49,343 nt of DNA from Jimgerdemannia flammicorona. Lineage: Eukaryota. Positions 99 to 43,928 of the stretch are shown here, piece by piece; position 1 is the first letter of the stretch, and each line of letters starts with the position of its first letter. The notes under the pieces were generated by a model, which did not search any database, was not told the DNA's origin, and saw only the letters and a list, made by a program, of their open reading frames with translations. Location: contig RBNJ01000031.1 of assembly GCA_003990765.1 (NCBI GenBank), positions 1 through 49,343 on the forward strand, given 5' to 3'. The position numbers and the translations under genes were made by a program.

Positions 99-100
<2 letters not shown>

Positions 101-12888: not shown

Positions 12889-13429
12889 TTAGTCATCATC
12901 CCAGTATAGGTAAGCATCTTCTGCATCAATACCTGTTCCATCATCTTCATCATCTATACCATGGTTACTCTATTTCAAGGGTTCTTCTTCTTCTTCTGAA
13001 AATAGGATTTCAATAGCATTGATGATGCTCAGATAGGTAGCTAGGTTCATTTCTCATATATCATACCAGGAGAATTATACTTATATCATACCAGGAGAAT
13101 TGTACTTATATCAGAGTTGTAGGGTTTTGCTTATAAAGAGTATACAGCCTATCTATAGCAGTGGTATCTCTCCTTAATAGTCCTGTGATATTTCTGATAT
13201 ATATTTGTTCTATAACTGAGAGATTCTGCAATTGTTCTCTAATTGCATAGTGGGTCTGAAGTTGATGGACCTGTAGTAATTGTCTGGTCAGGATATGATT
13301 CTCTTGATGAATCTAGATCTTCTGGAGGATATTCCCATTGACTTCTCAGAATTGGAGTAGGAGAACTGGCAGTAATTGAAATGAGCTAAGGATAAGGGTT
13401 TGAAGGCAGTTGTCAACTCTCTGATTTAT
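12889..13429 (-). pseudogene. Accessory ORF of element C between integrase and 3' LTR (~171 aa), putative homologue of the LTR-A/LTR-B ORFs
   Basis: Manual translation: INQRVDNCLQTLILSS...QTHYAI(R)EQLQNL...RNITGLLRRDTTAIDRLYTLYKQNP...SWYDI.EMNLATYLSIINAIEILFSEEEEE...YWDDD*. One frame once a 25-bp tandem duplication is removed; internal stops are all compatible with single transitions. Confidence 0.65.
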
Positions 13430-14489
13430 GATGTGGGGAAAGGTATATCTTGAGGTGATTGATATGTACTAGTGTCTTCAGAGTTCATCTATCCATGCTT
13501 CTTAAATAGATGCTGGTTCCTCTAATGTTGTACACAAGATAAGGTTCTTCCCATTTGGGCTCCAATTTGGTAGCAAAGTTTGTTTCAATCATACTTCTCC
13601 AAACTAGTACTTGATCTCCAATCTTGATCTCCTGATCCTTCTATTTCTGGTTATAATACTTCTTTTGTCTTTCTTGGACTTTGATAATCTGATCTCGGAC
13701 TTGATTATATAACTGTTCTACTTTTTTGAGAAGGTCTCCAAGATTCTCATGGTCAGCAGTTCTGGTCTTAGCAAACATCATTTCAAATGGTTTTTATCTG
13801 GTGGAGGCAGTAGGGGTGTTCTGAATTTCCCATAGGATCTTGGGTAAGCAGAGGTCCCAATTGGTAGAATTGACTTAAGCAAGTCCTTTCTTGATGATCT
13901 GATTCATTCTTTCTATTATACCGTTGGTCTGAGGGTGATATGATGTGGTCTATTTGAGGTGAATCTTATGAATTTAGGCATAACTTATGATTATGTTATT
14001 GATGAATTCTGTGCCTTGGTCAGAGATGAGTTCTTCTGGGGGTCTATATCTGAGTGTGAGTCCATAGAGAAGACCTATAATAGTTAAGGCATCTGTGATT
14101 TCTATTGGAAAAGCCTTGGGCCACTTGGTTAGATATTCCACAAATATAAGGATGTATTTGTTTCTTCTTGGTGTAACTGGTAGAGGTTCAATTATATCTA
14201 TTTCCTATCTCTAAAAGATATTGTCTGATAGTGCAATTGGTTATAGTGGTGCTTGATAGTTCTTCCTTCCTTAGTACTTCTGGTAGGTGTCACATTTCTT
14301 GAGTATGTCCTGGACTTATGTTCTAAGATTGGGCCAATGTTGGTGTATTGTTCGCAGCTTCTTTTCTACATTTGCCTATCCTTAGTGGGCTTTCTGATGT
14401 TCTTTTCAGATGAGATCTTCTTATGCCTTGATGGTCTGAGAAGTTTTCTTTAGGGTATAGTTCCTTGGGACACCCTTCTTCTAGTTCAT
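13413..14489 (-). pseudogene. Element C integrase, separate ORF
   Basis: ATG at 14489, HQKAH...HWP...KCDT(Y)Q zinc finger, IDIIEPLP, VEYLTKWP, SDQGTEF, YHPQTNG, KLEPKWEEPY. Confidence 0.85.
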
Positions 14490-14921
14490 TGAGACTGGCA
14501 GGAAAGTATATCAACATTGTTGTGAGCTTTCTCTGCTTTGTGGATAATAGTGATTTTGTAATCCTAAAGGATAAGGATCCAGCAAACTAGGATTCCAGTG
14601 GGTTTCTTGCAGTTGAATAGCTATTTGAGAGCTGTATGGTCTGTGATCAGGGTGAATCTTTTTCTGATGAGATAATGCTTGAACAGGGTGACCACCCATA
14701 TGACTGCAAGATATTCCAGTTTGGTGCTATCATAGTTCATTTACTGCTGATTGGTAGCTCTACTTGTATAAGCTATTATATGGTACTGTTGATCAGATCC
14801 TTCTTGGGCTAGAACTGCTCTGAGACCACCTTTAGAAGCATCTGCATACAAGACAAATGGCTTCTGTAGATTGGGGCACACAAGGATTGGTGCTACAGTC
14901 ATGTGGTTCTTGAGTTCTTTG

Positions 14922-14925
<4 letters not shown>

Positions 14926-14964
<39 letters not shown>

Positions 14965-16135
14965 GACTCAATGTCCTATAGATTTTTTATTAAAAGGGAA
15001 CCTAGACTATATAGGCCAAAACCCTCCCCATCACCCATCAAGCACTGCCTTCCCATTAACCTAGGCTAGCTATTATCCAGCAGCTCAACCATACTAGATA
15101 TAGCAGGGCCTATATTGGCCCATACCTCATTCTATATACCATGCTCTCCCTACCACCAGGGGGAACCCAGCCATATGCCAATAACTGAAAGTACATATCT
15201 GAGACCCCAACATATGTACAAGACCATGTCTGAGCCAAATAGAATAGCCTCTGCCATCTCAAAGAGAATGATAGATAAAGAAAAACCCTTATCAAAGTAT
15301 ATCATAGTGGATAGAGCCTGGTTCTCCTAGTCAAGATGAGTAAAAGACTTACATATGAGGTAGGAAGAGACCCCCTATACCCTACTACTCAAGCCTGTGG
15401 GCCTCAATCACATTTCCATGTCAGCTCTCAGTTCCAGTTGAGTATAGCCAAGATGTCTGAAATGGGTAACCTTGGGCCCTCCAACCCCCTCCAACAACCA
15501 GGGTCCAACCCACTAAATTATCAAAAGAAGCCAAGAGTGATATCTACCACCTAATCACTCCACACTAATCAAAAGGCCCCACCAAAGCAGTACCTGCCCC
15601 AGCCCCAATGACTACCCCCAGTCTGACATCCTACTGGTTCACCATTATCACCATTTCTCCTATCTGTGACAGCCATCTCCTCTCCCATCCTGACAACACC
15701 TGAAAAGCAGTCACCTATACCAGAACCATACTTGCCAGAAAGCTTGTCAAAGCCAGAGGGCCCCACTATAGGTACCAAGGACCTGCAGGTAACCTACACT
15801 GAGTACTTAATACCCAAGGTCAGCCAACTCTCTACATAGCCTGAGATACACCAAGACAGTATCTTGTTGGTGATAGCAAAAGGAAGAAGGCACTACACCA
15901 AAATGAATATACTCCAGACACAGCTAAAGATACTAGAAACTGCAAAAAAGTAGAGAAGACACTGATCTGACACCAATAAAGGGACAACTTGTCACCATTG
16001 CCTCTCTCCTACTACTTTGCAATAGATACAGCAAACCAATCTAAGATAGAGGGGGTAATAATTGTGGAAAGTAAACTCAGAAGGTTATCTACCAAACTAT
16101 TGTGACCAGTAAGGTAGCAGAGAAAGAGGCAGTTG
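14926..16135 (-). mobile_element. 5'-truncated LINE family L-1 copy inserted in element C between RT and RH
   Basis: PolyT 14926-14960; same 3' end as 1-98; TSD TTTGAAG(G/A) (14918, 16136). Removing it restores FKWIES.EKVFKELKNHMT. Confidence 0.88.
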
Positions 16136-21254: not shown

Positions 21255-22776
21255 TTTTTCTTATTATTCTTTTTATTAACTATCTATAACATGCTACATA
21301 TCCTCATACAATATCAGTAGTCCCATTCTACCCCAATCTCAACCCACTCCTAGCCTTGTACCTTTAGGATGTAAGTTGCGACCTCACTACTCAAGTAACT
21401 AGATCCTCCTACCCAGTCTGCCCCACTCAGTAGGTATGGGTTGTAAGCCCCAACCACCTCAAGTACTTGGTATCTAGTGCACCTGACCTACCCCTATTAG
21501 TACCTCCTGTCTTGCCCATCTAGCCTATCTTGCCTGCCCATGTTGCCCATATTACATATCATCTTGCCATCTTACCCATCTTGCCCATCTTATCTGTCTT
21601 GTCTATCTTGCCCACCTGTATTGTCCATGTTGTCCATATTGCTCATGTTATCTACCCATGTTGCCTGTGTTGCCCATATTGCCCATCTTGCCTGTGTTGC
21701 CTGTATTGCCCATGTTACCTGTCTTGCCCATCTTGTCTATCTTGCCTGTCTTGCCCACTCATATTGCCTGTATTGCCTGTATTGCCCATATTGCTCATGT
21801 TGCTTGTATTGCCTGCCTGTGTTGTCCATGTTGCCCATGTTACCCATGTTGCCCATCTTGCCTGTCTTGCCCATCTTGTCTGCCCATGTTACCTGTATTG
21901 CTCATGTTGCCCATGTTACCCATGTTGTCCATTTTGCCTGTTTTGCCTATTTTGCCTATTTTGCCCATGTTGCCTGTCTTACTGTCTACCCATCTTGCCC
22001 ATGTCACCCATCTTGCCATCTTGCCCATCTTGCCCATCTTGCCTGCCCATGTTGCCCATATTGTCCATATTGCCTGTATTGCCTGTATTGCCCACCTGTG
22101 TTGCCCGTGTTGCCTGTATTGCCCACCCATGTTGCCCATGTTGTCTGTGTTGCCTGCCCATATTACCCATATTGCCCATATTGTCCATTTTGCCCATTTT
22201 GCCCATTTTGCCCATTTTGCCTGTCTTGCCTATATCACCTGTCTTGCCATCTGCCCATCTTGTCCATGTTGCCCATCTTGCTATCTTACCATCTTGTCTG
22301 TCTTGCCTGTCTTGCCCATCTTGTCCATCTTGCCTGTCTTGCCTGTCTTGCCCATCTTGCCCATCTTGCCCGTCTTGCCCATCTTGCTCATATTGCCCAT
22401 CTTGTTGTCTTGCTGTCTTGCCCATCTTGCCTATCTTATCCATCTTGCCTGCCCATGTTGCCTATGTTACCTATATTGCCCATGTTGCCCATGTTGTCTA
22501 TATTGCCCATGTTGCCTGTGTTGCCCATATTGCCCATTTTGCCCATGTCACCTGTCTTGCCATCTGCCCATCTTGCTCATATCACCCATCTTGCCATCTT
22601 GCTGTCTTATCTGTCTTGCCTGTCTTACCTATGTTGCCCATGTTGCTCATATTGCCTGTATTGCCCATATTGCCCATATTGTCTATATTGCCTGTAGCCT
22701 ACCAAACTATTGTGACTGGTAAGGTAGTAGAGGATTATTATACTGCTTGAGAGCTTGGTGGTTGAAGCAGGCTGGT
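21255..22776 (-). mobile_element. Retroposed insert carrying a minisatellite, in the gag leader of element C
   Basis: Perfect 14-bp TSD TACTTCCAACTCTA (21241-21254, 22777-22790); A-rich tail with AATAAA on the minus strand at 21255-21280. Confidence 0.82.
21508..22695. repeat. Degenerate 9-bp minisatellite (~1.2 kb)
   Basis: Units TTGCCCATC / TTGCCCATG / TTGCCTGTC / TTGCCTGTA. All three + frames are open for purely compositional reasons. Confidence 0.95.
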
Positions 22777-23467
22777 TACTTCCAACTCTACAAGGAGTTG
22801 TGGTAAAGGTTCTGGTGAGATTGATGGGACTAGTATAGGATGTCTGGCTGTAAGATCTCAGGCTTATATAATAAGATCTTTTAGTTCTTGTGTAAGTTCT
22901 TCAAAATCTCCAACAGGGCTACCTATATTGTCTGCTTGATCTGGTTGGGAGTTTTGGGCTATACTATCTTCTGGTTCTGATTGGGATCTTTCTGATGCTG
23001 GGTAGTTGATAAGTCTTGATGTAATTACTTCTCTTCCTGTCTAAATACTGATAATAACTAGTTCTCCAGTAGTGGCAGAGGTTAGTATTGTATCAAATGT
23101 ATCCAGTTTGACTGTGGGTCCTTGTAAGCTGAAAAGTTATATTGATTTTGAAATCTTCCCAGTTGAGCCCTCAAATATAACATATCTGGCTCAATGGAGG
23201 CAAATTACAAGGTTGGAGATTGATGTAGTTTGGCTTAAGCCCCAGTTACTTTGTCAAAAAGCAATAAAATGTTCTAAGATTTCTGAGATTCTTGGTATTT
23301 AGTGGTATAATAGTCAAAGCTGGATATCTGTAAGTAACTTGTATATCAATTTTCTAATTGAGACTGTTCTCTGAGTATAGTGGTGATTTTGTAAATGGGT
23401 TTCCTTCTTGAGTCAACTGGAAATTAGTGGAATTTTATATATAGTATAATGATCTCCAAAAGTATAG

Positions 23468-24999
23468 TGTAACAGTGACCTCAGAATAATGACATCAGCA
23501 TAGGAGACAGCCTTTCCTCACAAGCCACTAGATCGGAGCACAAGGAGATTATATGGTATATGAGATAAGCAATGATGACTAACTGTAAGTCATTGTGACC
23601 ACAGTACAAGCATCCTGAAGAATATAAAAGAAGAATCAAGGAACTGCAGTAGCAGCAACCAATAAGAACCACCAATCCCAAAATAGCTCAAAGACTTACC
23701 ATAAATGAAATATCTGCCACTTACTAAACCTCAAGGTCAAGGAACCACTAAGGTATCTCAGTTGAAGAAAGGATGTTCCAAGATATCAGAAGAGCTATGA
23801 GGACCCACTCAAGAAGGACTCCTAGTGTCAACCTGGGTACTGCAGATCTCTATCACTTTATCCTCTACTGCTATAAAATGGAAACAAGGATCACTATTGC
23901 TACTGAATGCCTCTAAATGTGGCAGGAGTATGAAATAGGAAACCTCCTCTACCAGAAGTTCCCACAGGCCAGCCCTCAAGAGCTACAAGATGCCACTCTC
24001 ATAGATATATATGAGACAAGAACAGCTAAGAAGATCCATCAGATCTTCAGGCATGCACCATGATTGATCCCCAACTTGGAGTATGTTAGAGTCTCAGATT
24101 TCAGAGACCTGTCATCCCACCATATCAATGCACTAGAAGTCAGAGTGGCTACAGAAACCCAGTCCACTATCACCCTCAATAGTGATAAAGTAGAAGACTT
24201 CTGGCACCCTATCCTCCAGGACAACTCAGACCAATTCCTGCAAGGGTTGATCTCAGTATTCTAAGGCCCAAGTATCTAGGTTAGATCTCCCTAAGACCCT
24301 ACATTTGTCCCTTATCTTGTAGAAGAGAAACTTATAGACTGGAGAGCTCCAGATCTTATTCCTGATTTCCCCACCACTAAATGTAATGATGTCATTGGTG
24401 ATGATGTCATTCCACACAACATCAAAGTATGCAAAAATGATGAATTCGCAGATCTCATCTCCTTCAGTGATGATGATGATGATGATGAAGCCCCCATGGT
24501 CCTGAATTTTCTGCTCTAAGTTCCATGTTACACTGGATAATGCCAGTACTGATATTCTCATGTAACATTGAATAATACCAGCACTGGTATTCTGAGGTGA
24601 CACAAAATTGTTCTAGCACCAGTATTCTGATGTGACACTGAATTACACCAGTATTCTGAATCTATACAACCATCAGTGCTGACCCTGGAACTTAGTAGTT
24701 TTAGTTATTGGAATTTATATTTAGCTTTATATCTTAGCAACCATTGAATTATATTTTGTATAAATACCCCTCTTATTTTCTCTGAAATAAAGTTAGTTCC
24801 TCTTAGTGCAATACACACACTTCCTTGCAAGTAATCTAAGAGATAATAAGACAGTTTAAAGATAAGAAGTTTGAGGACTATAAGATCTTGGGAAGGCACT
24901 CCAATAAGAACTTGCTTATAACAAACTTGAGTTAGTCTAAGAGATACATCTTGAAGAGAATCTGATATATTTGAAGGACTCAGCAACTACTATGTAACA
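23468..24999 (+). repeat. 5' LTR of A2 (1532 bp)
   Basis: TGTAACAGTG...ATGTAACA. Confidence 0.93.
23710..24519 (+). pseudogene. LTR-encoded accessory ORF (family A), decayed copy
   Basis: 810 nt, colinear with 30937-31746; start ATA and in-frame stops only. Confidence 0.8.
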
Positions 25000-25118
25000 A
25001 CTTGGTGCCCATTGGCTAGTGATTCAAGATGAATCCCTCACTTTCAAGCTAAAAAATGAACAACCCCACAACAACTATCCTGACTACAAGAGTCACCTCT
25101 GTAAGAATTCAAGACAAG

Positions 25119-28100
25119 ATAGAAATGCATCCCCCCACATTCTATGGATATACTACTGAAAAGTCAATCTTGACCTTCATTGAAGACTTTGAACAATTCG
25201 CCACTATATGAGCTCTTGGTGTGGATGCTCAATTGGCCCTTCTACTAGTTAGCCTCAGAGGACCTGCCAGAGACAAGTTCAATATAGCCATCATTGCTGA
25301 TGCTGATGCAGCCAAACTTGCCAACATGAAGGCCTTCCTCAGAACAATATATTATACTGAAGAGATCAAGCAAGCTCTCAAGGATCAACTCAATACTATC
25401 TGCCAGAGACTTAGTGAAGATCCCAACTCATTCTAAATCTGAATCTGCCACTAGATTATCTTGGCTGGCTATAATGACCACCTCAAGAAACAAATAGCAG
25501 ATTTAACTTTCCTCAAAGGAGTTCACCCTGAAATTGCTCTAGCAATCCAGTATACCTCAGCTACACTGACCCTTGATCAGAAAGTGGTCTTTGCACAGAG
25601 ATATTGGACTGTCAGACACCCTGCCAAACACTCAATGGAGAAAATAACTGGCATCAAGATGGAGCCATCAAAGCCAACTAGTATCTTACCTGCCACAGTT
25701 GTAAATAGACAACAAACCCCACCTACCCCCAAGACAATCAAAGCTGACCCAGTGGAAGAACTTGCCAAGCAGTTCACCAAGATGACTACATACCTTGGTG
25801 ATATTGTTAGAGAAGTCTGAAGTGCCAACAGGAGACCAGTGCAGAGATTTGCAGCTGCTACAGAAGAACACAATATTACATGCTTCAGATGTGGAGAAGA
25901 AGGCCACTATGCAAAGAATTGCATGACTGAAACAAGATGCAAAGCCCAACCAAGTAATGCTAGCAGAACTAGAGAACAAACCAATGCAGTAGTCATCGAG
26001 GATATTGATGACACTGATGATGAAGAATACTATAAGGAGCTTGAATTCTACCCTGCTACTGAAGGTACCAGAATCTGGTCCAAGCCCTATGACAAGAAGA
26101 GCAACAGCAAGCCAGTTGGAAGACCAATGAAGACCCCAGCTATCACTATTCAAAGTAAGACTCAATCTAAGGAGATTGATCAAGACATGGAGTTAGATGA
26201 AGCTGCTCATCAAATTATTGAAGACACTACTCCAGTCTCAGGAGAAAGTGAAAGCAAGAAGGAACAGAAGCTGTGCAAGACCAAGATCTATCAGTATGAC
26301 ATCTACAAGGACCTCAAGGAACAGAAGGTCAATGCTACTTTTGGATAACTAGCTGAAGTCCCTGCCTTCAGACAGCAGTTGAGAGTAGGACTTGCAACTA
26401 CTGCCAAGAATCAAGAGTACAAGATTGTAGAAGCTCACAATGCACAGGAAGAATCTGAGAACTTAGGTGAAGAATCCGAAGACCAGCACAAGACATCAGC
26501 CTATACCCTATGTCAGATTGAAGACTATATCTTTAATACCATCATTGATACTAGTACTGGAGGATATCTCATGAGCAAGAAGACAATTAACCACCTAGAT
26601 TGGGATATTGAAGAGTCCACCAAGATGGTCTATGTTACAGTAGATAGTATACAAGCTACCCCCCTTGGTAAAATCTGAGAAGTCTCCATCAAGATAGGAG
26701 GAGCTACTATCTCAGTAGATATGATTGTTACAAGCACCACTAACTATGATATCCTCATTGGCAACCAATGGCTCCACATGGCCAAGGCCATCATTGACCT
26801 CAATGCCCAGAAGATACAGATCAACTATAGAGGAAGAAAGGTATGAGTCTCTATCAATGTCTACAAAGAAGTTCTACCAGACATAGAGGAAGGAGATGAA
26901 GAAGACACAGAGGTCTTCATGCACTTAGTGAATAAGAATAAGAATAAGATACCTAAGCTCACAGATGAGCAGTGGTACAACAAGATCATTGATAGCTATG
27001 CCCCTCAAGAAAGATGCCCCTATGGTACTAAGATATACTGCTCTGAACACCTGAATGACTACTGGTCCTGTACCAATGAAGTCAGGAAAATCCACTAACA
27101 GAAATATGAGCAAGAAGCTGCCAAAGCAAAAAGAAAAGCCAAAGAAGATGATCAGCCCCCAGAGCTCCAAGCTGACAGTGATAATGAGGAGGAACAAGAA
27201 TTAGATATCACTCTCAAGGTCAAGAAGTTTCACCCCAAAGCCAAGATCCCAGAATATAAGACTGAAGGAACCATAGGAATAGACCTTGCTAGCATTCAAG
27301 ATACTACCCTCAAACCACAAACCACCACCCTACTTGATACTGGAATTGGAGTCAAGCTGCCAGAGAACCATATCAGAATTATCAAGACCAGGAGCAGTCT
27401 GGCCAAAAGCAAAATCTCAGTTGAAAGAGGAGTAATTGACCCTGATTACACTGGTGAGATCTTCCTCATAGTCAGAAATCACAACCACACCACCCCCTTC
27501 GAAGTCAAGAAGCATGACAGGATTGGCTAGATGCTGATCTACGAAATCAAGAAGCCCAAGATCATTGAAGCCATCGAACTCATCAAGACCAAGAGAGGAG
27601 AACAAGGCTTTGGATCTACTGGAAGAGGAGCCTATGCCGCTACCAAGATTACCAAACTTAAGTACAAGAAAGACAAGGACCAGAACAAGCACACATATAT
27701 CATTGGAGAAAACTTTCCCCTGGAGGAACAGCTTCTCAAGATCCTGCACCGGAATGAAGGAGTACTTGCTATAGACTTCAGGGATATCCACAATCAAGAA
27801 CCTAAGTACTACTATGAAGTTGACACTGGTGATATCAAGCCCATCTACCAGAAAGCCAGACCCATACCACCTGCCTACAGAGAGTGGCTGTGAGCAGAAC
27901 TCAAGGAAATGGAAGAAGCCAGGATCATCAAGCAAGCTATCAGCCCCTGGGCCTCACCCATTGTCCTTGCCCCAAAGAAAGGAAGCAAGCCTGGAGAGTT
28001 TGTACCAAGACTCTACATTGACTACAGGAAGCTCAATGCCATCACCAAGAAGGATAGGCAGCCCTTGCCAAATATTCAAGAAATTCTTACCACTCTTGGA

Positions 28101-30694: not shown

Positions 30695-32216
30695 TGTAAT
30701 AGTAACCTCAGAATGATGACATCAGCATGGGAGACAGCCTTTTCTCACAAGCCACTAGATTGGAGCACAAGGAGATCATATAGTATATGAGATGAGTGAT
30801 GATGACCAACTGTAAGTCATTGTGACCACAGTACAAGCATCCTGAAGAATATAAAAGAAGGATCAAGGAACTGCAGTAGCAGCAACCAATAAGAACCACC
30901 AATTCCAAAATAGCTCAAAGACTTACCATAAATGAAATGTCTGCCACTCACCAAACCTCAAGGTCAAGGAACCACCAAGGCATCTCAGTTGAAGAAAGAA
31001 TATTCCAAGATATCAGAAGAGCTATGAGGATCTACTCAAAAAGGACTCCTAGTGTTAACCTGGGTATTGCAGATTCCTATTACTTTATCCTCTACTGTCA
31101 TGAAATAGAAACAAGGATTACCATTGCTACCGAATGCCTCCAAATGTGGCAGGAGTACAAAATAGGAAACCTTCTCTGCTGGGAGTTCCCACAGGCCAGC
31201 CCTCAAGAGCTACAAGATGCCACTTCTATAGATATATGCAAGACAAGAATGGCTAAGAAGATCCATCAGATCTTCAGGCATGCACCATGGTCAATCTCCA
31301 ACTTGGAGTATATTAGAGTCTCAGATTTCAGAGATCTGTCATCCCACTATATCAATGCACTAGAAGCCAGGGTGGCTACAGAAGTCCAGTCCACTATCAC
31401 CCTCAATAGTGATGAAGTAGAAGACTTCTGGCACTCTATCCTTCAGGACAACCCAGACCAATTCCTGCAAGGGTTGATCTCAGTATTCCAAGACCCAAGC
31501 ATCCAGGTTAGATCTCTCCAAGACCCCACATTTGTCTCTTATTTTGTAGAAGAAAACCTCATAGACTGGAGAGCTCCAGATCTTATTCCTGATTTCCCTG
31601 CCGCCAAATGTGATGATGTCATCAGTGATGACATCATCCTGTACAACATTGAAGTATACGAAAATGATGAATTCACAGATCTCATCTCCTTCAGTGATGA
31701 TGATGATGATGATGAAGCCCCCATGGTCCTGAATTTTCTGCTCTAAGTTCTATATTATACTGGATAATGCCAGTACTAGTATTCTTATATAATACTGAAT
31801 AATGCCAGCACTGGTATTCTGAGGTGATGTGAAATTGTTCCAGCATCAGTATTCTGATATGATACTGAATTATACCAGCATCCTGAACCTATACAACCAT
31901 CAGTGTCAACCCTGGAACTTAGTAGTTTTAGTTATTGGAATTTATATTTAGCTTTATATCTTAGCAACTATTGAATTATATTTTGTATAAATACCCTTCT
32001 TATTTTCTCTGAAATAAAGTCAGTACAATATATACACTTCCTTACAAGCAATCTAAGAGATAACAAGATAGTTTAAAGATAAGAAGTTTGAGAACTATAA
32101 GATCTTGGGAAGGCACTTCAACAAGAACTTGCTTATAACAAACTTGAGTTAGTCTAAGAGATACACCTTGAAGAGAATCTGGCATATTTGAAGGACTCAG
32201 CAATCACTACATGATA
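30695..32216 (+). repeat. 3' LTR of A2 (1522 bp)
   Basis: TGTAATAG...ACATGATA, followed by TSD ATAG. Confidence 0.93.
30937..31746 (+). CDS. LTR-encoded accessory protein, 269 aa, unknown function (intact copy)
   Basis: Uninterrupted ATG-to-TAA ORF entirely inside the LTR; TATAAAAG ~85 nt upstream; predicted helical N-terminal half and acidic C-terminus; colinear in all four LTR-A copies. Confidence 0.8.
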   Translation: MSATHQTSRSRNHQGISVEERIFQDIRRAMRIYSKRTPSVNLGIADSYYFILYCHEIETRITIATECLQMWQEYKIGNLLCWEFPQASPQELQDATSIDICKTRMAKKIHQIFRHAPWSISNLEYIRVSDFRDLSSHYINALEARVATEVQSTITLNSDEVEDFWHSILQDNPDQFLQGLISVFQDPSIQVRSLQDPTFVSYFVEENLIDWRAPDLIPDFPAAKCDDVISDDIILYNIEVYENDEFTDLISFSDDDDDDEAPMVLNFLL

Positions 32217-33211
32217 ATAGGTAATTTCTATATAGCATGATGATCTCTGTATAGTGCAGTAGATTTCTTATATAGGATGATCTTGGTGATATTTCTTATA
32301 TGGATTTGGCAGATAACTCGATTTGGCTAACTGGGAATTGTACCAGTGCAGTTTCTTCTATACTAGGCTCACTTGATGTAAATAACTTGGATGTCACAGA
32401 TTATTCCCAAATCAGTAGCTTTAACTGGGAATGCAGATAACTTGAAAATGGCAGATGATGTGGATTCTTCCTGAAATAGTGGCTCTCTGAGAATACTACT
32501 CAGGTAGTGTAAATTCTTTCTGAATCAGCAGCTTCAACTGGGAAATAACTTGGGTTCTTGACAAGCTACATTGAGACTGGTTTTGTTTGCATGAATAGAT
32601 TACTGTAAAGTTGTATCAAGGACTGGCTTGTGGTAAGAAAGATAGGCTCTCTGAGAATGTGGCAAATAACTCAAAAGACAGTAAAGTTCTTCCTTAAACT
32701 TGGTGGCAAACTTCAGGCTTATCTGGCAAGCAAACCAAAAATGGACCCATTCTTTATATCAGAAAGTGGACCAGAGTGAAAAGGGGAATCAATGCTCACA
32801 ATCTCCTAGTAGTGGCTGTAGAGTGGGTATTTCTCCTAAGTGTTGCAATCCTTTCTGGATCAAGTGGCTTTTGGCAGGTATATCTCTCAAAGTATAATAG
32901 GCAGACTTGTCTTTTGCTTTTGAATTCAGACTTTTGGACTGAGGTTTATTCACTCTTGTCTCTGAGGTAATTTATAAATTATGGTTACTATCTAGTTGCT
33001 ATATTGCTAATTATAGATCTACTATTTATAGCAAGTTGTACAGGTCCAGCACAAGTGTGCAGGTCATGTAGGTCCTACACAGATATACCTTATCTGGTAG
33101 TCTGGCTATTTATACAGTTTTTACAGTAATGGTTGCTGGTTACTATGCTGTATGTTCACATTATCTGGCTAAGATATAATTTGGGTAGTATATCTTGGTT
33201 TATCACAATAT

Positions 33212-35563
33212 ATATAATAAATTTAGTTTATTAGAAGTATGCTCCTAGATTGTTATTCCATAAGACTGATTTTTGGACATAATTATAGTTAACCTAAACA
33301 TTATATACCAGCTACCCATTTCAGAGATATATGTAACTGTTATATGCATCACCATCACAAAATATCAATATATATGTCAAAATTGAAATTTGAGCTTGAT
33401 TCTATACTAGTGATAAAATAAGTAAGATGTTATACTAAAAGATGAGCTCAGGGATAGTTGCTTTGATGTAGTTTCTGAAGGCCAAAGAAATAATGATATG
33501 TACCATTAAAGTTCTAAACAAAGACAGAAAATCAAGTACTATCTCAGCAATTCAAAAGAAGATAATGATGTTGATTGATTTAAACCACAGCAACATAATT
33601 GCCATTTCATATCAGCAAGACAAAGGATCTCGCATTCATAATGATGGACTGTGCTGATGGGCCCATATATCTCTTGGGCATGATCAAAGAAACTGATGAT
33701 TTTATCATTCAAAGTATCTCATTAATGATATCAGAAAAATATTATATATCAAGATATAAAGCCCTTATAAGACTATTATTGATCTGACTCTGGAAGTCAG
33801 TACAGTATGTCATTAATATATACTAAGACATATATATTGAGCAATAGTTTAAAGATATCATTTATAAGGTTCTGAAAGGTTACTGGAGTATTTATTAAGC
33901 CAAAAAGTATAACTCAGAACTAATAATATCCAAATTATATCCTGAAGACCATCTTTTCCACATCTTTCTCATTAATAAGGATCTAGTAGTATCTATTTTA
34001 CAGATCTGATAGAGAGAATATCTTGGCCTTAAAGATCTGATAGAGTAGCTTATTGATCCTTAGAAGAATATACTAGTTCTTGATAATGATCTTATTGAGG
34101 GCTTGATAGTTAATATATATTTACAGTGAGCTATTCTTTTTCTTGACAAATAGTAAAATAATACTTATTTCTACCTCTCTCTTATTCTGGAAATAAGGTA
34201 TTACTTAAGGACTTGATATAAGTATATATTAAGAAGCCTTTTAATTATTCATTTCACTTAGTGGTATTTACTAAGATTTTTGAGAAAGTGCTGTTTTTTT
34301 GTAGTGAATAATAATAGAATTGCTCTTCTTTAGTAACCATAGTTACAAGAGACTTGTTCTTACTATATATAGACTAAATCTCTTATAATTCAGATTTAAA
34401 GAGATTGGTTTCTTTTTTAGATTTATATATCAGTTCTCAGTTCTGATAAAAGTTAGCTAGACTTCTAGAGTTTAGTTAGAAATACTAGAGTAACTTATAT
34501 AGATATTATTACTAAGAAACTCAGGAAAATATATATGAAGAAAGAGTTATATTTGACTAAGAGCTGAACTAAAACTACTTTATTTTAGGTATAAATTCTG
34601 AGGTATTTATATATATTAGCTAAGAGTAATTTTATAATTTTCTGGCTAAATATAAGTAGCTAAATATAGTATATATTTAGGATCTTTGTGATTATGATCT
34701 TTTATGATCAGGATTTTTGTCTATAATCAGAATAGTAGTCTATAATCAGGCTAATACTTTTGGTAGTATACTTGATTAGATAATATAGTTACTTAGATAT
34801 AGATATAGGTCTCAGTATTTAGAAGTTCTAGTATTTTATTTTTATACTTGTTTTATTTATTTTATTCATTTATAATATTATTGCTAAATTATATAATTGT
34901 TATTTATATTATATCTCACCTATTTACTTATTTTATATATAATTTTATTATATTCTTCTCTCCTTAGAAATCAATATCTATATTAATTTCTATTTTATCA
35001 ATCTTGAAGTTGAGGGTCAGTGAGAGAATATTATTCTTATTCTCATTTTTATCATTAGTATCCCACTGGTTTATGGAAGAGATAACTGATATCTCTATAT
35101 CAATGTCCAGAGTAGTGAAGTTAATAAGATCTATAAATAGTTCTTACTAGTCTATAATTATCTAAGAAGAGATAAAAGATTACTATCTAATATAGTTAGT
35201 ACTATCTAAGTAGAGAACTTGATCTTTATTTCTTAAAATATTTATTTATATGAATAAGTTTTCAAATAGATTAGAAAGACCTTGAAGTTATTAGTCAGAG
35301 TTATTATTCAGTAAGAGATTCCAATAGAGTTTACAGTCTCTAGACTTAAGAGAGATTCAAGAGTAGACTTTGATAGCTATTCTTTATTTTAGTTTATCTA
35401 CCTCTAGGTATAAGAGATTCTGAAAGTCTGTAATTTAAATAAAGTTAATATTAGAGATAGTATAGAGAGTATACCTGAAGATTTGATAAATCTTCTTAGC
35501 TAGTCTTTACTTATATCTATTTAGATTAGTTCAGATATTAATCTTGTTCACTATAAGGCCTTA
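33212..35563. mobile_element. Highly degenerate AT-rich transposon relic (possibly Gypsy protease region, + strand, near 33430-33800)
   Basis: Extreme TpA enrichment and no ORFs. Fragment LPFHISKTKDLAFIMMDCADGPIYLLGMI resembles a retroviral-type protease flap region. Confidence 0.35.
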
Positions 35564-36648
35564 ATAGTTATTGAGATAGTAACTCAATATATAGATATAT
35601 GACTTTATAATATACTCTATTCTATCAGTTTTATATCATTCATCAGTAATATGTAAAATATATAACTTAAGTATTTTGAATAAATTACTTCTTCTGTTTA
35701 TCATACAAAGATTATGAGCTTTAATTAGTAACTAGAAACTCTTCTAGTATATATACTATACTGTAAAGTATATAAATATACTAAGTATAAGTATCTATAG
35801 ATAAATATAATCATTACTAGTCCAGGTGATAAAGAAGTCTACCAGATAGTAACAATAAAGAAGTCTATCAGAGGTAATACTGAAGTCCTTCTAGATAATA
35901 GGTGAAGTTCTCTCTGATATCAAGGCAATTATAACAAAGATGTCTACCCAGATATTTGAGGTAATTACAAAGTCCTCTTTAATAGCAGAAGATAATTATG
36001 ATAAAGTCATCTGTCTAGATATTCAAGATAATTATAAGTTCTTCTAGATAGCAGATAAAGTCCTCTCTGATATTTAAGATAAACACCAATAAGATCAAAA
36101 GTACAGATATAGTAAATGAAGCCAGTATAGATAATAAGATCAAAAGTATGAATAAGGTTATAGAGAAGATTAATAAGATTAGTAACAAGACTGATAAGAT
36201 TATAAAAGAGACCAATAAGACTAATAAGGTAGAAATATTAAGGTCAACAGTATAGATAGTTTTGTTATTCAGCAAAAGTATAAATATAGCCAATAATAAT
36301 AAAGATAATATCTAGTTAATAAATTTTGATATAATATAGTATATGATATACTATATATATTATAAAGATATAATAATAGTAATAGCTATAGTAATGACAT
36401 TAGATTAAGCAGGAGTATATAGTCATCTAACAAAGTCTAGTAGCTAATCAGATATTTTTCAGACTCTTAAAAGTCTTATATTATATATATATAGATATCT
36501 CTTATTTATAAGCAAATTATATATATTATACTTCTATAAGTATTAGAATATTTTTTGATCTGTAAAAAATATATAGGATTTCTAGTTATAATTTGGGTTA
36601 TATATATAGTTCTAGTTTTTGTATATGTTATATTACTTTATACTCTAG

Positions 36649-36713
<65 letters not shown>

Positions 36714-36956
36714 TTTAGTATATATACCTTCTTGAGTAAGAGTATTGGAATAATAACTTAATATATAGGTACATGACTTTATACCACACTATATTTCATC
36801 AGTTTTATATTATTTATCAATAATATATAAAATATATAACTAAGGAGGAGGAAGGCCCAGTGGGAGCCAAGGAAGCGAACCCAGAGCCAGTATCAAAGTG
36901 AATAGAAGATATGTGGAAAGGCATGTATAAGAGGGATGAACAAAGAACATAACTGA

Positions 36957-37351
36957 TTTACTCACCTCAACTGGGAGAACCAGGTACTACCCACTATGTT
37001 ATGCTTTGATGAAGGTTTTTCTTTACCTGTTATTCTCTTTGGAGTGGCAGGGGCTATTCTATTTGGCTTGGACATGGCCTTGTACATACATTGGGTTCTC
37101 AGGCATACACTTTCGGTCATTGGTGTATGGTTGGATTTCCCCTGGTGGTAGGGAGAGCATGGTGTACAGAATGAGGTACAAGCCAATATAGGCCCTGCTG
37201 CACCTAGTATGATCAAGCTGCTGGACAATAGCTAGTCTAGATTAATGGAGGGACAGTGCTTGGTGGGTGGTGGGGGAGGGTTTTGGCCTATATAGTCTAG
37301 GTTCCCTTCCAATAAAATTCTACAGGACATGAGTCCATTAAAAAAAAAAAA
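36957..37351 (+). mobile_element. 5'-truncated LINE family L-1 copy inside the PLE pseudo-LTR
   Basis: Reverse complement of ~14960-15340; polyA; TSD AACATAACTGA/AATGTAACTGA. The empty site is seen at ~40983. Confidence 0.88.
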
Positions 37352-37955
37352 AATGTAACTGAAAATGCATCAGCCATTTATTGCTATGTAAAAACGTGGT
37401 CCTTATATACAAAATATAATGTCCCAAAAGGGAGGATGTGCCACAACTTGGAGTGAACCAAATTAGGAACCACATGACCACTGGAGATAGGTAGAGGTAA
37501 AGAGGGAGCCAATCCCAGTTACAGGATAAAAATTACAAACAAATACAAACAAAACAAATCCAAATCGAGATTAAAAAACATCTGCAGACCCTGGAGGGGT
37601 GAGCGCAAGTGAGGGGTGAGGCCAAAATGGAGTGAGCTGCAGTGAGTCTGAGCAAAGCAAGGAGCTGAAGGCAGCAGAGGGGAGCAGAGTAAGGCTGAGA
37701 CCCCGGAGTGAGTGCAAGACCCTGGAGAGGGCAAGGATGTTTTTTAATCCTCTTCAGTAGAGCTGAAGGTACCAGAAGGTAATGAAAATGCAAAATGAGA
37801 GTGATGGATTAAAGAGGAAACAGAAGAAAGATGCAAATGAGCAATCAGAGAGCATCAAGAAAGAGATAAAAGTCCATAGTGAGAAAGAGAAGAGTGCAGG
37901 ACAGTATCAGGGCATTGAGCAACCCAGTGAGCATGATCAAATGATATGATGAAAA

Positions 37956-39716
37956 TTAGAGATGGGAAAGAAGAGGGAGTATAGAGAGGGTAAGAGGGGA
38001 GGGAGGGATAAAGAGGAGAGAGAAGAGTAGAGTGAACAACAGACTATTCAACAGAAGCAAGCAGATCATGAATGATAGAAATAGGGAGGCATGATGATGG
38101 ACCATAAAGTTACCAAGAACCTGAATAGCAGATACCCAGTCAGAACAATGGGAGCAGCATAATGCAAGATGATGAGCCTCACCACAAATACATTCAAGAA
38201 GAGTATGATGAGGATGATTGGACAAGAAGTCAGGGAACTATTGGGAATGGGGAAAATATAAATAAACAATAGTTTGGAAAGGAGAAAGAGAAATGGAAAG
38301 GTTCAAAAAGGGAATACTAGTCTTACTGCACACCCAAGTAATAGAATAGTGGAGAGGGTAGATACCCAGAAATACACTAGGGATATCAATACCAGCAACA
38401 GCAAAGATGATAAAGTCATCAATGTATCAGCAAAAGAAGATATCCCCAGCCCAGAATGCAATAGAAAGAGGTGAAGAGAGATCACATAATACACACAGTT
38501 CATGGGCCAGGCCAATGAGGTTGGCAAGAGTGGAGACACAATTTGTTCCCATAGCAATACCAGAAGTCTGGTGAAAGGAGCCAAGAGCTGACTCAAAATA
38601 ATTAGAGCTGCAGATAAGGAGTATAAGCTCAATGATGGAAGCCAATGAGACCAGGGAGTCCAAAGGAAAGATAATGGAATCCAAGAAGTGAAGGCAATCA
38701 TCGATCTCATCAAAATAAATAGCAGTATAAAAGGAGGAGAAATCACCAGAGGCCAAATGGGAAAAATAGTGAATAGGCACAATGGTGGAGCAGAGAAGGG
38801 CAAGCTCCTGAGTATCATGAAGAATAGTATACTCAGGCCCAAGATGGTATTATAAGAGAGCTATCCAGGAGAGGAAGAAGCAGGATAACTACTTCAAAAT
38901 CTCAGTGGTAGGGGAACTATAAGCAGTCATAATGAGATGCCAAGCCAAAGTAGGCTTGTGAACTTTAGGAAGAGCATAGAAAACCAGAAGAGAAATATCT
39001 GGGGAGGACAAAGAGTCCTGGAAGAAGTTAAAAATGGGGTTCACAAATAGAGAATTCAAAAGTAATCTGGCATGAGCCAGAGAAACCTGAAGAAGAGTAA
39101 GAATCTCATCCAATCCAAGAGTGCTAGGCTTATAAGCCATGGCTTGGAAGAGGGCAGAAAGGCCATCAAGGTAGAGTGACTTAGGAATAAGTACAAAACC
39201 TTGATTCTTATCAGTGACTGTGAGCAAATGCATGAGCAATTGCTTGACTGATTTAAGCATGGTATGCATGGCATGGTCCAAAACTAAGTAAGAGCGAGCA
39301 TGTCTGGGAATGGACAGTGAGCAAGCCATGTTGAGGAATACACAGTGTGAAGAGACATTGAGAGGGGGGACCCAATTGCTGGGAACAAAATAGCAAGAGA
39401 GCATCTCACCATGATCTTGAAAGAAAATGGCAAGATCAAGAGCATAATGAAAACATATAAGATGAGCTGGATCAGTGAAGGAAAATTGTGAGAGAGTTAC
39501 AGGAAAAATGAAGTGAAGACCCAAGGATAAGGCAAAGACTTGAAGGGGAGAAAGGGGACAGTCAGTCAAAGAGAAAGGAGGACAAAAGTGTTCCAAGAGA
39601 AGAGTAAACCTGAAAGTTTGGGACAAGCAACTGGGAAAGGCAAAGGGGGGACAATATGAGGAACCACTCAGGGCACACCAGAAGCAATGATGGAATCTGA
39701 GAAGAGACAGGGACAT
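37956..39716 (-). pseudogene. Penelope-like reverse transcriptase
   Basis: TDKNQG, FYALPKVHKPTLAWHLI, GDFSSFYTAI, FHQTSGIAMGTNC, (R)YIDD, thumb SNHPHHTL...GEA(R)(R)LAL.CS. No GIY-YIG motif seen downstream. Confidence 0.88.
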
Positions 39717-39743
39717 TGGGGGAGAATTACACTGAGGGGAAGT

Positions 39744-41008
39744 TTAAGAGTAGGAGGCCTTCCCCTTTTTTTGAAGGCAGTGAATCTGACAAATGGGAGC
39801 ACACCCTATCAGAGTGCCAGACCTTGCAGCCACAGGTTTTCGTATAGCCCTTACATTTGGGGGCACAGGTAGAGGAGGCAGAGGAGGAACCAGCAGAGGA
39901 GGCTGAAGGTGAGTGAGCAGCTGAAGGGGTAGTAGTGCGAGGAATACCACCATGAGGACAGATGGACTTGGCCAGGTGCAGTAGGCACAGTGGAGGTGAC
40001 TGGAGTAGATAGCACAAGGCCAGGCCCTGACAGGGCAAGAACCAAGTTGGTGGCCATGCTTGGGGGCAGGGGGAATGGAGGAGGAGGCCTTGGCAGGAGA
40101 GGGAGACCAAGAAGAGGCCAATGAAGTCTGGTTGGGCTTGGTGGGGGTCTTGGTGGGGGTCTTGGAGGGGGCCTTGGCAGTGGTGGCAGTGAAGGAATGG
40201 ACCTCAGCATGAGCAGCAGTGTGAGCTTTGGTACGAATGGCCTTGGAGACTGAAACCTTGGGGGAGGCAGGCAGGGGAGCAGTGGCAGCAGCATGAGTAG
40301 CAGCAGCAGTACATAACATCTCCTGCTCATGAAGGCAAGCAACAAAAGAGGTACCAGCAAGGAGGAAATGACACACAGCATTGATGTCAGCAGCGACAGA
40401 AGGAATATCTTAGATGGCAAAGCCACAGAAGTGGGCAGTATCTAAGAGGCAAGAGGAGGCAAAGGCCATAAAGGCAGCACAGATATAGTGGAAGGAGGTG
40501 GAAGCAGTGGCGGCAGAAGCAGTGATAGCATCAGCAGCAGCAAGCTTGGCAGTGGCAGTGGCAGTACAAACCTCTTCAGAGAGAGCTTAGTGGCAGGCCT
40601 TGGGGAGAATGGAGTAGCAGATGGCAGGCAGAGCAATGATGTTGATGTTATGGTAGAGATGAGCCTCCTTGGCAGAGAGGGCAAGAACTGACTGGAACTG
40701 AGAGAGAAGCAGATGACCAGAGGGACAAAGGTCCAGGGGGAGGGAAAGGATGGTAGATGAGACATAGGACTCGAATGAGACAGTGGCAGGAGTAAAGACA
40801 GAAGGGGGAGGAGGAGGAAGAGCCTCATCCATAAGCTTGTCAATAAGGATGGAGGCCCTGAGGGCAGGCAGTACAGCAGAGGAGGAGGAAGGCCCAGTGA
40901 GAGCCAAGGGAGTGAACCCAGAGCCAGTGTCAAAGTGAATAGAAGACATGTGGAAAGGCATGTATAAGGGAGATAAATAAAGAATGTAACTGAAAATGCA
41001 TCAGCCAT
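39744..41008 (-). pseudogene. PLE ORF1 (Ala/Pro/Ser-rich, Cys/His cluster), frameshifted
   Basis: ATG at 41008 lies inside the pseudo-LTR, ~30 nt after TATATAAGG; fragments 40587-40961 and 39744-40376 (CPVRAWPCAIYSSHLHCAYC). Confidence 0.55.
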
Positions 41009-41697
41009 TTATTACCACATAAAAATGCAGTCCTTATATACAAAATATGATGTCCCAAAAGGGAGGGTGCACCACAACTTGGGGCAAACTGAATTAGGAA
41101 CCACATGATTACCAGAGATAGGCGGAGATAAAGAGGGAGCCAATCCCAGTTGCAGGATAAAAATTATAAATAAACACAAACAAAACAAATCCAAATCGAG
41201 ATTAAAAAACATCCACAGACCCCAGAGGGGTGAGTGTGAGCGAGGGGTAAGGCCAAAATGGAGTGAGCTACAGCGAGCCTGAGTGAAGCAAGGGACCAAA
41301 GGCAGCAGAGGAGAGTAGAGTAAGGCTGAGACCCCAGAGTGAGCATGAGACCCCAGAGGGGGTAAGGATGTTTTTTAATCTTGATTTGAATTTGTTTTGT
41401 TTGTATTTATTTGTAATTTTTATCCTGCAACTGAGATTGGCTCTCTCTTTATCTCTGCCTATCTCCAGCAGTCATATGGTTTCTAATTCAGTTTGCCCTG
41501 AGTTGTGGCATATCCTCTCTTTTGGAATGTCATATTTTATATATAAGGACTGCATTTTTACAAGGCAATAAATGGCTGATACATTTTCAATTATATTCTT
41601 TGTTCATCCCCCTTATACACACCTTTCCACATATCTTCCATTTACTTTGATACTGGCTCTGGATTCACTCCCTTAGCTCCTGCTGGGTCTTCCTCCT

Positions 41698-43730
41698 TAT
41701 AAGAGGGTTGCTTTTTAGAGTAACTATTATGTAGTTCTGGAAAGGTTTTGCTGGAAGTTCTGGATGTTCTGGAAGACTGTTTTCTTAAGGTCAAGATCAA
41801 TTTTATATGGAGTATGTCCTCTACACTTATTGAATACGAGATTGAGTTGACATCTCAACCAAAGTCCTTTTTTGGACTAGTTTTAGATATTTAGAATTTT
41901 CTATATTTCAGAAAGTTTAAGAAACTAAGACCAGCTTAGTTGAATTGGCATATTACTGCAAACAATACTCAATTAGGAAATTTCATAACAGGGTTAGGAG
42001 TAGGACCTAACAGGGAGCAGATTTACTTAAGAGTGGTTTGTGGGTTATTAAATAGGTTTATTTGCTATTCATGATATTGCTATACTAGAAGTAGTTGTGT
42101 AAAGGAATACTGTGGGAAGTACTCAGGAGTTGTGTTTGGATTATTCAAGTCTGAGATTCTGAGGTCTGGGGGAGGGGGTATTTATACTAGTGAGGGGCTA
42201 TCTGGACTATGCTAGATATAGATGTAGCACTAAGTGCCTTGCTAAATCAGAATACAGTTATGTAGTACAAGTGTAATCTGACATATCAAGAGATCATCTG
42301 ACTGCTGAGTCAGTTCACAGTTATATCGTACAAGGCTAATCTAATTATACTATGACTGCTAGGCTATTTATAGATTTAGATACTGTCTGAGTAGCCTTCA
42401 ATGATATCACCATCGATTACATCATTTCTGATGAAGTAGTCATCTAGGAAAAGTGGTTTGCAGATTACTTCTCCTTGTTTGCTGAGGTAATAATACATTA
42501 GAACTTTGTCTCCATCCTACAAGATAGCATTATCAGTCTTATATGCTGGGTAAGGTGTTGGTGGGTAAAGGAGGGGTATATCATCTTTACTTTCATCAGT
42601 TTCGCTATCTGCATATCTTCTATAGGTTACAGCACTATGAGTTGCAGAGTTGTAGTAAGCTGGTGGCTATAGTTCATGTTGCTCATACTCAGGTGGTAGA
42701 GTGGTTGGTTCAATCTTGAGGGTTGTTTGGAGGTATAGGTTATATTCTCCAGTCTCTTCATTATAGTTAAAGTAATCAGAGGTAAATGTGAGTTGGTATT
42801 CATGCCAGTGGTTATTGTCCCAATAAGTCTTGTATACTATTATGAATTGTTGTAAGTTCATTGGCAAGGTTGGTGGTGTGATCAGGGTTGGCAGGGATCC
42901 TTGGCTTGAGGTCATGTCAGCATCAGAGAGATCATTGTCTTCTACTTTGTCTTCATCAAAGTAGATTATATTGTAGACATCCTTCATGATGTATCTAACT
43001 TAGGACATTTGCAGGATATGATTATTGGAGTGTGGGAAGGTTCTGTCTGTGGTTTTGACATACTTAAGATACTTGTGGTTGAGTTTTTATATCATATTGT
43101 CAATTTGGCCATAGGATAGAGTAGTAACCATTTTAGCTATAGTAACTTGGAGGTGGAAAATAATAGTGCTATACTCATAGAAAAGTTCTCGATGTTTGCA
43201 GGCAATGAGTTTCTGGTGTTGAGATATCTGGGTAATGTCTATATCATGGTGGTGTTTAACCATGTCTTCTAGGAGGTAGCTGATCTGGTAGTAGCTTGAG
43301 ATTTGTCCAATTTGGTGGGCCTTGTTGAGCATGTTTAGGGCATTCCATCAGGCTTCCACGAAATAGAGGGGTGCCAGGCTATGGATATTCATAAGAGGCA
43401 GAGGAGAAGTGGCTCGGTTGATAATGGCATTCCAAATGTTAGTGCAGATACAGGTGTAGATCTCAGTGGTCATATTTGTGTGTTTGGAAGTTGTGGTTGT
43501 TGTTTGTTTTGGTTCTCTGGTTTGACACATATTGGTACTTGGTATATATGCATTTAGTCCTAATTAGTAAGATTCTATTTATGTGAATCTTGTATTCTGT
43601 GACTTCATATTGACTCAGCTTTGTGTGCTGTAACTTCGGTTTGACTCAGCTTCATGATCAAGCAGGTGATTTCTAGATTTGTTCAGAGGGTGACATGTGA
43701 TTTCAGTGGCTTGGAGGTTGTATGCTTATA
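41698..43730 (-). mobile_element. Solo LTR of family B (2033 bp), second copy
   Basis: TATAAG...CTTATA (decayed TG...CA); perfect 5-bp TSD CTCCT; colinear with 2613-4651. Confidence 0.92.
42667..43530 (-). pseudogene. LTR-B-encoded accessory ORF (~287 codons)
   Basis: ORF-track fragments 43348-43530, 43087-43332 and 42667-42987 are all in one frame, separated only by in-frame stops. Confidence 0.78.
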
Positions 43731-43928
43731 CTCCTCCTCAGTATTTTGAATAAATTACTTCTTCTATTTATCATAATAATAGTATTAATAGATATAGTAA
43801 TCAATTTTGTACTCATATCAGATTTTCAAATAGCTAGTAGCTTAATAGACCCTCTCAATGAGTTCTTAGCAGTTGAGGATAAAATATTTTAGATCTTAAC
43901 TAGTGAGATTAAGGATCTCTAAGTAGAG

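Follow-up and report, generated by a model that had tools for sequence, protein, structure and literature searches.

Can the long terminal repeats (LTRs) of a retrotransposon harbor a protein-coding gene of their own? The question is raised by a stretch of 49,343 nucleotides (nt) from Jimgerdemannia flammicorona (contig RBNJ01000031.1, hereafter the window), in which decayed Ty3/gypsy elements, mutated by transitions, lie nested in one another. A preliminary description of this DNA had proposed that three of its retrotransposon families, termed A, B, and C, share one uncharacterized accessory gene that lies in the LTR in A and B and at the env position in C. The peptides quoted for the three families are all present in the window, on the + strand near 455, 10184, 23920, and 31147 for A, on the − strand near 4207–4010 and 43290–43093 for B, and on the − strand at 13258–13021 for C. 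Their placement was also correct, within the LTR for A and B and between integrase and 3′ LTR for C. The reading that we moderately favor is a single accessory gene family, encoded on the sense strand inside LTRs, to which A and a fourth family, E, would certainly belong and B probably.

An open reading frame in the LTRs of families A and E

Family A is present as two elements, A1 and A2 (Table 1), with LTRs of ~1.5 kb. All four LTRs contain a sense-strand open reading frame (ORF) of 269 codons, the A-gene, which takes up LTR positions 243–1052 of 1523 and is intact in the 3′ LTR of A2. Hypermutation resembling repeat-induced point mutation (RIP) has acted on the window. Between the two LTRs of A2 there are 143 transitions and one transversion; the corresponding ratio is 157:6 for the LTRs of A1 and 277:22 for the two B copies described below. 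In the A2 pair, 66 of the 106 placeable C/T differences are found in a CpA context. Because the change is almost purely transitional, the gene frames are broken by stop codons and not by insertions or deletions (indels). The copies were aligned as read-through translations with an X at each stop.

Intact relatives of the A-gene occur elsewhere, with identities of 20–82% (P0003–P0014 range and the ORFs of L001 and L002). Six database proteins match with E values from 9e-116 to 5e-33, and when 1.84 billion representatives were searched exhaustively with a profile, 6 proteins were returned at E ≤ 0.001, among which P0012 (342 amino acids), P0013, and P0014 are distant intact members. Overall, about a dozen relatives are found among the 1.8 billion representative proteins. 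Of 84 candidate stretches in a scan of metagenome contigs, 2 additionally proved to be relatives, on the environmental contigs L001 and L002, which contain intact ORFs of 323 and 291 codons that begin with M-P-A as in A. The DNA similarity between A and L001 is restricted to the ORF. The ratio of nonsynonymous to synonymous substitution rates (dN/dS), which had been suggested as a check, is not near 1: it amounts to 0.15 between A and L001 (51% identical) and to 0.10 between L001 and L002, both being rough values since dS is saturated. Among the window's own decaying copies the ratio is 0.39–0.50. Because intact relatives exist elsewhere and dN/dS is as low as 0.15, the comparison of sequences argues that the A-gene is a genuine protein gene inside the LTR.

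A hidden Markov model (HMM) of the A family was run over all six frames of the window, which had been cut into 492 pieces. The four A copies scored 225–407 bits, and two further pieces on the − strand, which cover successive parts of the A profile, define the E-gene (Table 1). They are parted by a ~8-kb insertion (~35575–43790) that holds the solo LTR B2 and interrupts the gene. Family E is AT-rich and LTR-like, and its gene is nearest to the L002/P0012 branch. Judged by these profile matches, E is certainly a fourth LTR family in the window that carries the A-type gene. An isolated reverse transcriptase (RT) remnant with 28% identity to the RT of A (E 1.5e-8) is located on the − strand at 33803–34165, in an AT-rich block, with the E-gene piece just ~1 kb upstream of it. 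As this is nearer than an intact element allows, the E element must have been rearranged or deleted.

The gene of family B and its relation to A

Family B is represented in the window by two 2-kb solo LTRs only, B1 and B2. In both, one frame is kept across 1095 nt and is interrupted by stops alone. An intact protein, P0009 (247 amino acids, 59% identical), covers the C-terminal two thirds of B and ends at the same residue. The kept frame and this intact relative imply that the B-gene is real and much longer than the portion recognized in the preliminary description, and by the same sequence evidence B appears to be a genuine uncharacterized protein gene inside an LTR. The earlier proposal of an uncharacterized gene in the LTRs of both A and B therefore holds, with frames kept, intact relatives for each, and no Pfam family. 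Database searches with B2 alone and with the B alignment, by which the B profile might have been deepened, gave only P0009, and a scan of viral contigs with the B alignment yielded no relative in 413 candidate stretches.

The LTRs of A, B, and C were said to lack nucleotide similarity, and at word size 7 there is indeed none of significance: A–C and B–C gave no match at E ≤ 0.1, and A–B gave a single match of 26 nt (E 0.067). Between the proteins of A and B, similarity emerges at the profile level. The hhalign P value against B was 0.049 for an A profile of 8 sequences, 0.002 for one of 12 sequences, and 0.00099 for one of 12 sequences that included L001, L002, and E (probability 21.7%, 121 columns). 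The register was constant in every run (A 41–164 versus B 39–160), and MAFFT independently gives the same one. The real score of 33.0 was not attained by any of 200 column shuffles of B (mean 14.3, standard deviation 2.3, maximum 22.5), and reversed B scored 16.5. In the six-frame search with the A profile, B2 (13.1 bits, E 0.0013 for the 492 pieces) and B1 (9.3 bits, E 0.018) rank right below A and E, compared with maxima of 4.3 bits in the reversed database and 5.7 bits in ten shuffled databases. Conversely, an HMM of B only, run against 999 sequences, placed two A-family proteins at the head of the non-B matches (7.7 bits, E 0.16, and 7.0 bits, E 0.25), and the best of 984 decoys scored 5.5 bits. 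The likeness is confined to the first ~120 residues of B. On the strength of these profile comparisons, the N-terminal domains of A and B are probably homologous.

The stretch downstream of integrase in family C

The third proposed carrier is a stretch between the integrase gene and the 3′ LTR of element C. The LTR edge at 12848/33207 is sharp, and the position after integrase would suit an env-like third gene, but an open conserved frame was not found in C. The stretch occurs once and is interrupted by stops and a frameshift, the tail of the quoted peptide is reached only by a frame change, and Pfam gave no match to it. C's own LTR contains no trace of the gene in a six-frame hmmsearch with the A profile. 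Against that profile the C stretch scored 2.5 bits (E 2.2), and 2.8 bits (E 1.7) after B had been added together with E, whose C-terminal fragment, in a wrong frame, contributed noise only; both scores lie under the best reversed or shuffled decoys (4.3–6.7 bits). With hhalign, P was 0.24–0.31, and C was equaled by 40 of 100 shuffles in the comparison with A and by 69 of 100 in that with B.

The notion of a common gene thus survives in part: profile comparison makes it probable for A and B, which score higher than every shuffle and reversal control, and places C at chance level. Three families including C can no longer be counted, given one broken copy that shuffles so often equal, and the suggested movement of the gene between the internal region and the unique 3′ (U3) part of the LTR is left with no evidence. 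The residue pattern by which the three proteins had been linked is uninformative by itself. In the loose form that C satisfies, Y-x-I-x-x-x-L followed 30–33 residues later by an aromatic residue, it occurs 25 times in the six-frame translation versus 19.4 times in shuffles; the stricter Y-x-I-G-x-x-L occurs 5 times versus 1.7. Most likely the C stretch is decayed non-coding or unrelated sequence. The register and the likeness of its tail, judged by eye, leave a small chance that C is truly homologous to A and B and has been eroded by mutation.

LTR layout and proposed expression of the gene

The ATG of the gene is found at LTR position 243 in A and at about 258–262 in B. An octamer, TATAAAAG, precedes the ATG by 65–80 nt in A, L001 (1–70), and L002 (290–380), although the surrounding non-coding DNA is unalignable. 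In B, a TATA-like CATATATAC is found at −72 from the ATG. In A, the stop codon is directly followed by a 35-nt tandem array of 3.8 copies in the A2 3′ LTR and about 6 copies in the A1 5′ LTR (1059–1285). This array lies ~105 nt upstream of TATAAATA and resembles an enhancer array in U3. An AATAAA follows 27 nt after TATAAATA in A; the two are 11 nt apart in B, and the same pair is found in L001, where TGTATAAATACCC...AATAAA is kept after the ORF (1230–1290) and the remaining non-coding DNA is unalignable with A. At the junction of U3 with the repeat (R) region, LTRs usually show this succession of tandem array, TATA box, and poly(A) signal. From this order the A-gene is read as lying in U3.

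Each LTR would accordingly take on the form of a self-contained expression unit. The gene would start ~245–260 nt from the LTR 5′ end, with the TATA box 65–80 nt upstream of the ATG as its own putative promoter, and downstream of the ORF would come the tandem array, TATAAATA as a second TATA box, and the AATAAA of the LTR. With the gene placed in U3, an mRNA of ~1.1 kb could be made from 5′, 3′, or solo LTRs. That the LTR is a gene cassette in this sense, consisting of a TATA box, an ORF of 270–370 codons under purifying selection, and a poly(A) signal, with a gene that is older than A, B, and E, is a proposal that we consider possible, at somewhat less than even odds.

Alternative readings

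The ORFs might be passengers without a role in the element, either pieces of host genes that were captured or fortuitously open frames. They contain no known domain and their family is tiny in public data, as this would lead one to expect. The explanation is nevertheless very improbable in the light of the purifying selection between LTR lineages and of the retention of the gene in no fewer than three LTR families, where start, stop, and upstream box are conserved. The relatives moreover occur in an LTR-like context, and the colinearity between L001 and the A LTR extends as far as TATAAATA/AATAAA. A more serious contender, though still unlikely, holds that the A and B genes are unrelated, that their N-terminal likeness reflects convergent or chance amphipathic helices, and that the common layout stems from general constraints on LTRs. 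The HHalign probability and an identity of 20% are low, the B-only HMM reaches A-family proteins at weak E values only, the C-terminal halves of the two proteins are unalignable, and the Y-x-I-G-x-x-L motif occurs near chance frequency. Set against this are an hhalign score ~8 standard deviations over the column shuffles and double the reversed control, the rank of B as top non-A/E match in six frames with both copies in one register, a P value that became better with each deepening of the A profile, and the agreement of ATG position and signal order between the A and B LTRs.

At the other extreme, the same gene could be present in all three families, at the env position in C, after a move between internal region and U3. 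The best local alignment of C with A does fall into the originally proposed register (Y-A-I-R-E-Q-L versus Y-E-I-G-x-x-L), C comes next after B in the six-frame search, and by eye a hydrophobic-F-S-acidic-run-P stretch in C resembles the A tail. With scores below those of decoys, no gain for C when B is added to the profile, and a lone copy broken by stops and a frameshift, this extension to C is improbable. A different kind of alternative concerns the expression mechanism only, and its odds are not additive with those of the others: the first TATA box could be the genomic promoter, which would place the gene in an R region of ~1.15 kb as the first ORF of the genomic RNA, like ORF0 of plants. 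The fixed distance of TATAAAAG from the ATG in A, L001, and L002, kept despite unalignable non-coding DNA, would agree with it. Transcripts that start at the first box would, however, mostly be ended inside the 5′ LTR by the AATAAA 1.1 kb downstream, and TATAAATA, with the array upstream and the AATAAA downstream, has the usual appearance of a U3/R boundary; we regard the long R region as unlikely.

The preferred reading of one gene family inside the LTRs also has to bear several points that weigh against it. Start sites, U3 assignment, and expression are all deduced from sequence, and AT-rich DNA often contains TATA-like and AATAAA strings. Public data contain so few members of the family that the selection estimates draw on a small number of sequences. 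The A–B similarity is weak in probability, identity, and reciprocal E values (0.16–0.25), and the B profile was built from two near-identical decayed copies. The sole outside relative of B covers its C-terminal part and not the domain in common with A, and B, being seen as solo LTRs only, offers no pol against which the gene could be oriented. Finally, no family, solved structure, or fold match supports any function.

Predicted protein structure and possible function

An AlphaFold2 model based on 13 sequences has a mean predicted local distance difference test score (pLDDT) of 62. Residues ~20–160 are all-helical in the model (pLDDT 59–94), and the C-terminal ~70 residues are disordered. An earlier model (P0001, 8 sequences) reached a pLDDT of 36 and was not used. 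The protein would consist of an all-helical N-terminal domain of ~120–140 residues, which includes Y-x-I-G-x-x-L and would be the only part common to B, followed by fast-diverging, largely disordered, acidic C-terminal regions. The A-family tails contain a D-L-I-S-F-acidic run and then a terminal A-P-x-x-L-N-F-L-L. A helical protein with an acidic tail had been proposed for all carriers. Its helical nature is backed by this medium-confidence model, and the acidic tail is present in A and not in B, where the acidic run is located mid-protein and ~200 residues follow.

The LTR protein family is an orphan with no Pfam family, PDB sequence match, or fold match. Pfam yielded no family above cut-off for P0001 (E ≤ 10) or for the six relatives (E ≤ 1), NCBIfam gave no usable match, and neither did the A-family profile among PDB sequences at E ≤ 10. 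A match of P0001 to ATG5_HBR (E 0.033) was below the family cut-off and was not used. In the ESM Atlas, P0003 gave weak leads only (0.85–0.86) to unnamed clusters, in which the few members assigned to a phylum are mostly Basidiomycota, and P0009, with an Atlas model of pLDDT 0.39, gave nothing usable.

A DNA-binding domain of the helix-turn-helix type may be taken as a lead for the N-terminal part. Our guess for the function, and a rather doubtful one, which draws only on the anatomy of the LTR and of the protein, is a factor that acts in trans as regulator or adaptor where the element is expressed or silenced; the transactivation, anti-silencing, or targeting role proposed in the preliminary description is likewise conjecture. 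The helical domain might then confer specificity, with the acidic-hydrophobic tail acting as effector.

Comparison with known systems

Accessory genes are known in LTR retrotransposons, and LTR-resident genes are known from a few retroviruses. Mouse mammary tumor virus (MMTV) carries the superantigen ORF sag in the U3 region of its LTR. Like sag, the A- and B-genes are sense genes of ~270–370 codons that lie wholly in a long (>1.3 kb) LTR and are duplicated with it. The differences are that the gene sits in an env-less Ty3/gypsy element, encodes an acidic protein predicted to be helical, and apparently has its own TATA box directly upstream, and that inspection by eye alone, without a predictor, showed no membrane anchor in the LTR protein. 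The Pfam scan yielded nothing that would match the Sag family. The foamy virus protein Tas/Bel1 and Tax of human T-lymphotropic virus (HTLV), which have acidic activation regions, come from spliced genes situated after env and before the 3′ LTR. They resemble the LTR protein in the trans action on the own LTR that is proposed for it; this is an analogy only, and no homology was found.

Among fungi, the Ty3/gypsy element Boty of Botrytis cinerea reportedly carries an additional gene, ‘brtn’, that is antisense according to the title of the report. Compared by title only, Boty is likewise a fungal Ty3/gypsy element with an extra gene; the gene described here differs in being sense and inside the LTR. 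A literature search at abstract level, with subscription journals and supplements outside its reach, returned no protein gene inside the LTR of a fungal retrotransposon. In plants, an ORF0 is known from Retrosat2/RIRE elements, in Retrosat2 upstream of gag-pol (available part of PMC3485330), and additional ORFs (aORFs) are classed as internal, in sense or antisense, with none described within an LTR in the available part of the survey (PMC7264820). As far as these parts of the two papers go, the plant ORFs are similarly orphan, fast-evolving accessory ORFs beside gag-pol that are conserved within lineages. They are internal, either before gag or 3′ of pol, whereas the A- and B-genes lie in LTRs, outside the internal region, and survive in solo LTRs.

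What would be new is a selected gene in the LTRs of env-less Ty3/gypsy elements that is kept across families with unalignable DNA. If the proposal is true, every LTR, solo LTRs included, is a potential source of a fast-evolving trans-acting factor, which could activate its own LTR, counter silencing, or let solo LTRs affect active relatives. If the gene is expressed from the LTR alone, solo LTRs become protein-coding units, which changes the annotation of such ‘dead’ sequences, and its product would offer a handle on the self-regulation of the element or on its dealings with genome defence.

Organization of the window

The map of the window (Table 1) was derived from self-BLAST, Pfam searches on read-through frames, and inspection of junctions. 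In A2, Pfam domains are arranged in the order zf-CCHC, RVP_2 protease, dUTPase, RVT_1, RT_RNaseH, Integrase_H2C2, and rve, so that protease, RT, RNase H, and integrase lie between two LTRs as in Ty3/gypsy elements. A2 is inserted in the 5′ LTR of element C. Families A and C are colinear (tblastn), and both have a dUTPase between protease and RT, at ~27240–27625 in A2 (Pfam E 5.6e-23) and with its counterpart at 17916–17485 on the − strand in C (tblastn). The LTR termini in A, B, and C are TGTAA...TTACA, some of them altered by transitions.

Table 1. Features of the 49,343-nt window. Positions count from the first nucleotide of the window.
Feature	Position	Strand	Remarks
Element A1 (Ty3/gypsy)	97–11333	+	Self-comparison, Pfam
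A-gene (predicted), A1 5′ LTR	236–1045 (approximate)	+	2 stops, one 9-nt gain, one 9-nt loss
Solo LTR B1	2615–4651	−	Self-BLAST; sits inside A1; 5-bp target duplication AAAYC
B-gene (predicted) in B1	3293–4390	−	365 codons, single frame, stops only
A-gene (predicted), A1 3′ LTR	9974–10782 (approximate)	+	3 stops, 1-nt deletion
Element C (gypsy, dUTPase-bearing)	3′ LTR 11532–12848; 5′ LTR 23176–23467 + 32218–33207	−	5′ LTR split by A2
Family C stretch	13312–12892	−	Between integrase and 3′ LTR (11532–12848); two frames, stops; no evidence of a gene or of kinship with A/B
Element A2 (Ty3/gypsy, dUTPase domain)	23468–32217	+	Self-BLAST, Pfam, LTR ends read
Element A2 LTRs	23468–25000 and 30695–32217	+	Self-BLAST
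A-gene (predicted), A2 5′ LTR	23710–24519	+	7 stops, no indel, start codon lost
TATAAAAG octamer	30850–30857	+	80 nt upstream of A-gene ATG
A-gene (predicted), intact copy, A2 3′ LTR	30937–31746	+	269 codons plus stop, open frame
35-nt tandem array	31748–31880	+	Right after A-gene stop, 3.8 copies (A2 3′ LTR)
TATAAATA then AATAAA	31986–32018	+	Read in A LTR
E-gene (predicted), continuation	35572–35186	−	hmmsearch 96 bits, E 5e-29, A-profile positions 70–198
Solo LTR B2	41698–43730	−	Self-BLAST; 5-bp target duplication CTCCT
B-gene (predicted) in B2	42376–43473	−	365 codons, single frame, 4 internal stops
E-gene (predicted), N-terminal piece	43940–43794	−	hmmsearch 26.9 bits, A-profile positions 19–67

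The 5′ LTR of A1 lacks its first ~100 bp and adjoins a 30-nt poly(A) run (67–96; window 60–100), which suggests that the left end of A1 was truncated by another insertion at the left edge of the window. In element C, a 1.2-kb array of 9-nt tandem repeats (21487–22722) separates gag from the 5′ LTR. None of its three + strand frames is closed by a stop, and its − strand translates into triplets of the G-N-M/Q-D-G type. AT-rich blocks with a GC content of 0.25–0.30 extend over 33–37 kb and 43.7–46 kb, consistent with a RIP-like process.

The core of the ~8-kb insertion that interrupts the E-gene (37–41.7 kb) is GC-rich (up to 0.50) with a strong GC skew; repeats of ~400 bp, direct as well as inverted, lie close to its two ends. 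By eye, an ORF with reverse-transcriptase-like strings and a YIDD motif is seen on the − strand of the insertion; in its GC-rich piece of ~4.8 kb (36900–41697), Pfam detected no family in the three − strand frames. A retroelement of the DIRS or Penelope kind is a possible identity of the insertion, and 400 bp of related sequence lie inverted at 14947–15344 within the RT region of C.

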